64,000 nucleotides of DNA from Octopus vulgaris (lineage: Eukaryota): the NCBI GenBank assembly GCA_951406725.2, contig OX597828.1:10230001-10294000 (forward strand). Direction: 5' to 3'. Below are positions 8,201 to 8,920 of this stretch, one piece after another; position 1 is the stretch's first letter, and the number at the start of each line of letters is the position of its first letter. A model generated the notes under the pieces. It saw only the letters and a program-made list of their open reading frames with translations. It was not told where the DNA came from and did no database searches. The position numbers were made by a program, and so were the translations under genes.

Positions 8201-8920
8201 CAACATCACAATCAAGGAACGGCCATAATAGGCCATTCACCCACTAGAAATAACAGCCAAAGCTTCAACCGCAAAATAACATTAATTCCGCAAACCAGGA
8301 GAAAATTAAAAAAACATTTACCCTGTAATTTCTTATACGATGCACCGTTTCATCTATTGTTTAATGGTAAACTAACCTGATTAAATTAAATCAAGCCAAT
8401 CTTCCATAGGCCCTTAGATTCGTCAGTAAGAAATAGCCAGATCGGAACAGATATTTTCACGAGGCACTTCTGTCCCTGCCTCGGCAATATCTGACCTAAA
8501 ATTTTCAAATCATCGCACTCGCGCCAAATTTATCGGCAGCAAATAAATATAAGCCGCCGATTCCATTACGGAATCAACCAGAAAATTCATAATTAATCAA
8601 TATAGGGTGGCAAAAAAATTTTGGCTTGATTTAATTTAATCAGGTTAGTTTACCATTAAACAGTAGATGAAACGGTGCATCGTATAAGAAATTACAGGGT
8701 AAATGTTTTTTAATTTTCTCCTGGTTTGCGGAATAAATGTTATTTTGCGGTTGAAGCTTTGGCTGTTATTTCTAGTGGGTGAATGGCCTATTATGGCCGT
8801 TCCTTGATTGTGATGTTGAACTTATAAATGGTCTATGACTATTTAATTTTTTTTCCCACTAGGCCGCTGGTGGCAAAAAAATTCTACAAAATTTTTTTTG
8901 CCACCCTATATGGATTAATT
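8201..8920. mobile_element. Penelope-like pLTR / retrozyme-like insertion with inverted duplication
   Basis: 8201-8399 is the reverse complement of 8620-8818 (few differences), and 8591-8622 is the reverse complement of ~8888-8920. It contains a hammerhead ribozyme and is flanked on both sides by (TA)n. Confidence 0.75.
8328..8434 (-). ncRNA. Type I hammerhead ribozyme, intact catalytic core
   Basis: Minus strand: stem I ATTTCTTA/TAAGAAAT (8 bp perfect), CTGACGA (8426-8420), stem II ATCTA/TAGAT around a 58-nt insert, GAAA (8351-8348), stem III CG-GTGCAT-CG, then cleavage triplet GTA (cut between 8336 and 8335). Confidence 0.85.

Follow-up and report, generated by a model that had tools for sequence, protein, structure and literature searches.

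Organization of the Insertion

The window analysed here is a 64,000-nt stretch of the Octopus vulgaris genome (assembly GCA_951406725.2, contig OX597828.1; C15:10230001-10294000 in our labelling). Positions 8201-8922 hold a single insertion, made up of two arms placed head to head between two strandless (TA)n runs that represent the target site (8128-8200 on the left and 8921-9055 on the right). Both arms consist of parts of a monomer, numbered from the first base past a predicted ribozyme cut. The B-end arm, on the minus strand (8201-8623), contains monomer positions 202-489 followed by 1-136, and its 3' end, at 8200/8201, abuts the left (TA)n run. The A-end arm, on the plus strand (8621-8922), contains positions 426-489 followed by 1-236 and has its last two nucleotides in common with the right run. 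The B end is therefore on the left and the A end on the right, and the copy holds less than two monomer units. The arms meet at 8621-8623 (no strand) through a 3-nt overlap (TTT).

The original prediction described a minus-strand arm with a hammerhead ribozyme and an inverted plus-strand copy of it. Self-comparison agrees: 8621-8819 is an inverted copy of 8399-8200 with 98.5% identity, and of the 203 positions that the arms have in common three differ. As had been proposed, the plus arm begins inside stem II of the ribozyme and lacks the CUGACGA segment; it keeps the GAAA half only (8669) and no complete ribozyme. The two arms do not, as was thought, share the same 3' end, since the minus arm, ending at 8200/8201, stops 136 nt beyond the predicted cleavage site, and the plus arm, ending at 8920-8922, stops 234-236 nt beyond it. 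The 5' start of the B arm (8591-8623, minus) carries the sequence of site A, where the A arm ends, and continues past it into the adjoining monomer sequence. This makes a terminal redundancy with the 3' end of the A arm (8589-8622 matches 8922-8889 at 94%). Position 8591/8590, previously taken as a unit boundary, is ordinary continuous monomer sequence, found 1,986 times genome-wide as internal read-through within arrays. The local hairpin placed at ~8868-8905 is a 37-nt hairpin at 8869-8905 (plus); it belongs to the conserved monomer sequence that separates site B from site A.

The element carries no open reading frame (ORF) of at least 100 amino acids, as the first reading had it, save a frame that reads through the TA run (7949-8380). 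No Penelope-like element (PLE) ORF, with reverse transcriptase (RT) and GIY-YIG domains, is present in the element or in the 64-kb window. The left flank is single-copy, and a target-site duplication is unreadable within (TA)n. A LINE-type element, truncated at its 5' end but with its RT frame intact (RVT_1, E 1e-31), lies on the minus strand at 9056-10810. Its 3' tail of short repeats borders the right (TA)n run, as the insertion does; the RT adjoining the insertion belongs to this separate element.

A Predicted Type I Hammerhead Ribozyme

Positions 8328-8434 of the minus strand are predicted to form a type I hammerhead cut after 8336 (GUA). Stem I pairs 8434-8427 with 8335-8328. The core segment CUGACGA (8426-8420) is followed by an extended stem II of 68 nt (8419-8352), by GAAA (8351-8348), and by a short stem III with a palindromic 4-nt loop, all on the same strand. 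Over 93-95 loci, ten core positions are invariant, bar one change, while any of the four bases is found at N7 (C 49, T 18, A 13, G 13) and position 17 is A or C. In 36 copies, 98.6% of the cells of this structure are paired, against 29-48% in slid controls. Double, compensatory changes are found at four pairs among these copies, a level reached in 3 of 500 shuffles; as the 36 copies are related, the number of independent covariation events is overstated, and for three of the four pairs the double change comes from one sequence only.

The main variants have a short, palindromic loop III, a feature linked to dimeric activity (PMC4209133). The first pair of stem II is A-U, or G-U in 8 of 36 copies; G-C has been called highly conserved at this place (PMC4209133). 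The best fold of the region pairs the core, as does the alignment-consensus fold, and the active fold is only 2 kcal/mol higher. Rfam searches of the whole window and of 8195-8925 gave no hammerhead at E values up to 10 and only repeat-driven hits below the gathering score, probably owing to the 68-nt stem II. Taken together, the conserved core, the free N7 and the covariation argue for a type I hammerhead in the 490-nt monomer, for which self-cleavage is predicted from sequence. Among Xenopus retrozyme dimers, eight of nine showed no cleavage in vitro (bioRxiv 10.64898/2026.07.22.740005).

A Large Family of Dispersed Tandem Repeats

Copies were searched in the 2.8-Gb, 227-contig assembly. With the minus arm as query, 142 matches, mostly of 97-100% identity and spread over many contigs, were found in the 40 candidates scored out of 1,018. 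An exact search with the 23-nt 3' half of the core gives 1,608 hits in the genome, vs. none for the reversed control; together with arrays of 488-494-nt period, this means that the observed organization is not due to chance. A 5'-core pattern of other subfamilies gives 2,366 matches against 270 in the control. Exact junctions of the A end with a TA run number 825, which sets the family at no fewer than 825 insertions, and 418 B-end/TA junctions were counted for one subfamily. The monomer is 488-494 nt long, non-coding, with 37% GC, and occurs in arrays of up to ~10 units, which upholds both the ~490-nt unit and the head-to-tail multimers of the original prediction. Copies with multimers on both arms are nearly identical and dispersed, and their outer ends are fixed. 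Folded as a circle, the monomer has a z-score of -5.6 against 60 shuffles. Many sister loci carry at least two complete hammerheads; the window locus carries one and, for this reason, is likely an inactive dead end.

The detailed comparisons below rest on ~97 loci, out of at least 825 in the genome. We fetched the 40 loci closest to the window copy (itself included), 40 loci in positional order on contig C1, taken from the 3'-core matches, and 20 hand-picked from the 5'-core-pattern matches of other subfamilies. Among the 60 stretches of the latter two sets, three (L192, L193, L210) proved to lack the family and were set aside, so that 98 insertions at 97 loci were compared; L164 contains two insertions and was excluded from the arm-haplotype comparison. 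In the region of L121:1500 (C1:4098975, minus), a different hammerhead-like motif, unrelated to the 490-nt family, was observed.

No RNA data set is listed on record as containing the monomer. Four sequencing runs, presumed to be RNA, span the full monomer together with its junction and barely touch a single-copy flank; being contigs, they cannot show ends, strand or circles, the junction exists in DNA too, and low DNA carry-over from thousands of copies could give the same coverage. An RNA-editing imprint was considered and rejected: A>G changes are frequent in these runs relative to one reference unit, yet they show no excess among genomic private variants (3 of 25 locus-fixed and 11 of 162 single-unit variants).

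Two Fixed Ends, One per Arm

Arms of the family end at two places past the predicted cleavage site, site B at 131-136 nt and site A at 231-240 nt, with an offset of ~105 nt; the ends counted as B fall at about +131 (125-147) and those counted as A at about +236 (229-243). Both canonical ends are present in 65 of 98 insertions, and all 65 combine one A with one B, without any AA or BB (binomial p 3e-20; four of the 65 were called from a short motif on a tiny arm). In a further 25 insertions one end is canonical and the other is simply 5'-truncated, and eight have an irregular second end. A TA run lies no more than 30 nt from each of the 163 canonical 3' ends. The rule recurs at 65 loci whose inner junctions differ. 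The Penelope-type inversion with 5' truncation that was first put forward is thus sustained, with head-to-head arms and a tail on one end only in 65 of 65 cases. What the earlier reading called the 3' end would rather be a start site of reverse transcription for the cDNA.

Several observations concern the ends themselves. Second arms of only 10-25 nt (L062, L159, L177, L183, L187) still end at the fixed sites, and so does a 53-nt solo fragment between TA runs (L073:342-397). The motif TTGATT, at monomer positions 121-126 and 225-230, lies 5-7 nt before both fixed ends, and the sequence around it is nearly constant from locus to locus; in the window it occupies 8215-8210 (minus) and, with one change in this copy, 8911-8916 (plus). 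It is a candidate recognition signal. Folding two hairpins between B and A would, by arithmetic, shorten the offset to ~45-50 nt, a figure too loose to count, and this idea was set aside.

A Probable Common Template for Both Arms

Full monomer units differ by 0.64% within loci (229 pairs) vs. 4.3% between loci (11,096 pairs). For 81 of 119 units the nearest neighbour is in the same locus, with 15 ties and 23 units closest to one elsewhere. In 49 of 56 loci the arms share one haplotype, as judged at common polymorphic sites; they disagree in seven loci (9 of 2,003 sites), where random pairing gives 49.5 loci (~500 sites). The two arms of the window copy differ at one such site. In L031, the arms come from two subfamilies.

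The predicted cleavage site is crossed by 138 of 160 arms. There, 269 of 271 unit junctions are exact, and arm 5' ends are not enriched (7 of 160 within 10 nt, p 1.0). These results point to an uncut multimer or a re-ligated circle as the template; on the same grounds, cut linear monomers joined by template jumps were rejected. For the window copy too, though sub-monomer, the template must have been tandem or circular, as site A is upstream of the ribozyme in one arm and downstream of it in the other.

Variation inside loci bears on the form of this template. In the sampled loci, 25 variants are private to one locus, where every unit covering the site has them, for instance in five of five units over both arms of L188, which fits what laps on one circle predict. 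Among the 17 arrays with at least three full units, eight are homogeneous and nine are mosaic, with variants in only some units; in L069, one variant is in register on both arms and absent from further units. One monomer circle per insertion cannot alone explain the mosaic arrays, the L031 arms or the difference between the window arms; multimers, template switches or later exchange also occur. The circular template of the original prediction is thus compatible with the homogeneity of 8 of the 17 long arrays and not, in any simple way, with the other nine. Mosaic arrays were seen in L031, L032, L054, and L195; L032 repeats a five-site haplotype in two distant units, and L054 mixes four variants with no strict period. 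Strict periods of a multimer circle were also tried: 2 or 3 fits L041, L157, and L188 and none fits L032, L054, and L159, but units are so few in long arrays that such fits are common by chance.

We listed 68 inner head-to-head junctions of inverted 5'-truncated arms. Among 58 analysed, 32 have an overlap of 1-8 nt, 17 contain inserted letters, five have a long overlap and four are blunt. The A and B arms have similar lengths (medians 569 and 565) that are uncorrelated.

Coding Penelope-Like Elements in the Same Genome

One coding PLE family has a 781-residue frame with RT and GIY-YIG domains (Pfam) and accounts for 16 of 148 GIY-YIG matches. It is young, with copies 98-99.7% identical, and inserts in (TA)n; its two ends are 40 nt apart and distributed one per arm in all four two-armed copies. 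A CxxxxCxxC motif precedes the nuclease, as in Neptune/Nematis (PMC8557442). This Neptune-like family also has an overlapping 479-residue frame (L104:544-5790, C6:133342700-133351700; L101-L120), and a motif search of its terminal repeat (pLTR) picked up no canonical hammerhead. A second PLE family, with 58% amino-acid identity to the first, is represented by a two-armed insertion with a tail on one arm (L162:652-4480), and a retrozyme copy sits in its terminal TA run.

The search for a partner covered RT+GIY-YIG families. By blastn and profile search, the monomer shows no similarity to 70 GIY-YIG loci (of 6,136 candidates), their pLTRs included, with the sole exception of the separate 53-nt retrozyme insertion in L073. 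The 781-residue family and the other local RT+GIY-YIG families were therefore rejected as sequence-related partners: they show the same target and end rule and no shared sequence. A partner may lie outside the sampled loci.

The original prediction had allowed that every other copy might be the pLTR of a coding element. The sampled loci tell otherwise, as none has a copy contiguous with an RT ORF. PLE protein matches occur near retrozyme copies in 9 of the 100 fetched stretches and lie beyond a TA-flanked end or beyond unrelated DNA (seven of these regions were read in sequence and two judged by coordinates). The 30 5' flanks of truncated copies have no adjoining parent sequence in common.

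Proposed Insertion Mechanism

A dispersed family, a tandem monomer, a TA target, one fixed end per arm, an arm haplotype in common, scarless read-through and hammerhead conservation are observed. The window insertion is very probably a non-LTR retrozyme, and PLE-type two-site priming is a probable route for its insertion. Overall, we favour, with a probability of roughly 0.7, a young dead-end retrozyme copy inserted in trans by a PLE endonuclease/RT through two-site priming in (TA)n. Donor arrays would be transcribed, giving a template that may be an uncut multimer or a re-ligated circle. The PLE endonuclease would then nick a (TA)n run, and a dimeric PLE protein would prime cDNA synthesis on both strands of the DNA, from site A on one and from site B on the other. 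The length at which either cDNA stops would be random, and short microhomology or a hairpin in the template would allow the two to be joined head to head. A PLE protein studied in vitro cleaves both strands and extends them, starting at two internal RNA sites that define the tail; it favours AT-rich DNA, uses uncut RNA and is predicted to be a dimer (PMC11167929).

As to the main template, a circle and a linear multimer have about equal chances. We tentatively suggest that a PLE dimer may capture one 490-nt ribozyme circle without kinship to its own RNA and roll it into both sides of the (TA)n break, a possibility to which we give somewhat less than even odds. Comparable odds go to the same two-site PLE priming on a long uncut read-through transcript of the donor array, with circles irrelevant to insertion. 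Uncut RNA is indeed the main substrate in vitro (PMC11167929), and both the mosaic state of 9 of 17 long arrays and the variant found in register only on the two arms of L069 are in line with it. Yet the 25 locus-fixed private variants, such as that borne by all units of L188, are expected from laps on one molecule, and 8 of 17 long arrays are homogeneous, although with ~97 of at least 825 loci sampled homogeneous donors may lie outside the sample. Another proposal dispenses with the second priming event: the inverted arm would arise by self-priming, or fold-back, of one nascent strand, with the endonuclease resolving the product at the second site (PMC3846280). Shared haplotypes follow naturally from it, one arm lies inside the other in 40 of 58 loci, and symmetric inner junctions, several at monomer hairpins, are found in 10 of 58 loci vs. 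1.7 expected (maximum 8 in 2,000 shuffles). Fold-back copying alone is excluded, however, at the other 18 loci, the window copy included, because neither arm lies within the other; this share is the one expected for independent arm lengths (19.6), and the lengths of the A and B arms are alike and uncorrelated. Moreover, same-sense cDNAs would anneal only at template hairpins, so that two-site priming would also predict symmetric hairpin junctions. We therefore consider fold-back improbable.

The repeats could also have grown in place. A solo pLTR of a coding PLE would have landed, and arrays would have expanded by local unequal crossover (bioRxiv 10.64898/2026.07.22.740005). The mosaic and periodic variants of long arrays agree with this, and the link of Xenopus retrozymes to pLTRs (same source) makes a remote pLTR origin plausible. 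As an account of these insertions it is nevertheless very improbable: near-identical dispersed copies have multimers on both arms with fixed outer ends, even the sub-monomer window copy requires a tandem or circular template, and no sampled copy joins an RT ORF or, in the truncated flanks, a common parent. Inverted repeats in microsatellites are hard to assemble, and an artefact or chimera at the palindrome between two TA runs could be suspected. This is unlikely in the extreme because all 65 loci with two canonical ends follow one end rule and their inner junctions differ; besides, the window arms differ at 3 of 203 positions and the left flank is single-copy.

Two-site priming by a PLE protein would bear on two questions. 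For the re-insertion of retrozymes, PLEs are named only as a strong candidate (PMC7229834), and the mechanism is said to remain to be elucidated, with local amplification favoured (bioRxiv 10.64898/2026.07.22.740005). How PLEs form inverted pLTRs with a one-sided tail is unsettled (PMC8557442, PMC3846280). The window locus itself is an ordinary copy, likely inactive. The family is large and young and lacks an ORF; with both start sites mapped and a strict end rule, it provides a test set for PLE-driven retrozyme insertion. If the rolling of circles were true, the genome would preserve, in thousands of copies, a direct record of retrotransposition from circular RNA, and the strict pairing of one A with one B end would account for the inverted pLTR and tail of Penelope elements in general.

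Relationships With Known Systems

The class to which the insertion is assigned, non-LTR retrozymes, is already known, and the 490-nt family is new to that class. Like metazoan non-LTR retrozymes (Cervera and de la Pena 2020, PMC7229834; Li, Clavereau and Pollet 2026, bioRxiv 10.64898/2026.07.22.740005), it consists of non-coding tandem monomers with one type I hammerhead each, has a GC content below 45%, is strongly self-paired and coexists with coding PLEs. It appears to lack an LTR architecture. Its monomer length is within the 51-972-nt range of the bioRxiv study but exceeds the 170-400 nt of the circles of invertebrate retrozymes. The 68-nt stem II, its A-U first pair and the absence of a related pLTR among the loci searched are further differences. 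The same preprint takes two consecutive complete hammerheads as the mark of an active locus; the window locus has one motif. Two-armed insertions and fixed ends are not described in the available parts of PMC7229834, where the word "inverted" is absent, or of the preprint, where "tail" is absent. We found no report of two-armed retrozyme insertions with two fixed ends in the titles and abstract openings covered.

Among non-autonomous PLE relatives, the Chlamys elements, for example MRC1, resemble their autonomous partners at the 3' end and belong to a clade without canonical hammerheads (PMC8557442). In contrast, the octopus retrozyme carries a hammerhead, and none of the sampled elements is a partner related to it in sequence.

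The closest likeness in architecture is with endonuclease-bearing (EN+) PLEs (PMC8557442, PMC3846280, PMC11167929), which also have head-to-head 5'-truncated arms, partial tandems, a one-sided tail, microsatellite or AT-rich targets and a hammerhead upstream of the ends. Unlike them, the retrozyme family has no ORF, and both its arms can be multimers. Finally, EN+ PLE insertions have a tail of 30-40 nt on one end (PMC8557442, PMC3846280), and the local coding family has an offset of 40 nt, whereas the two ends of the octopus retrozyme are 105 nt apart.
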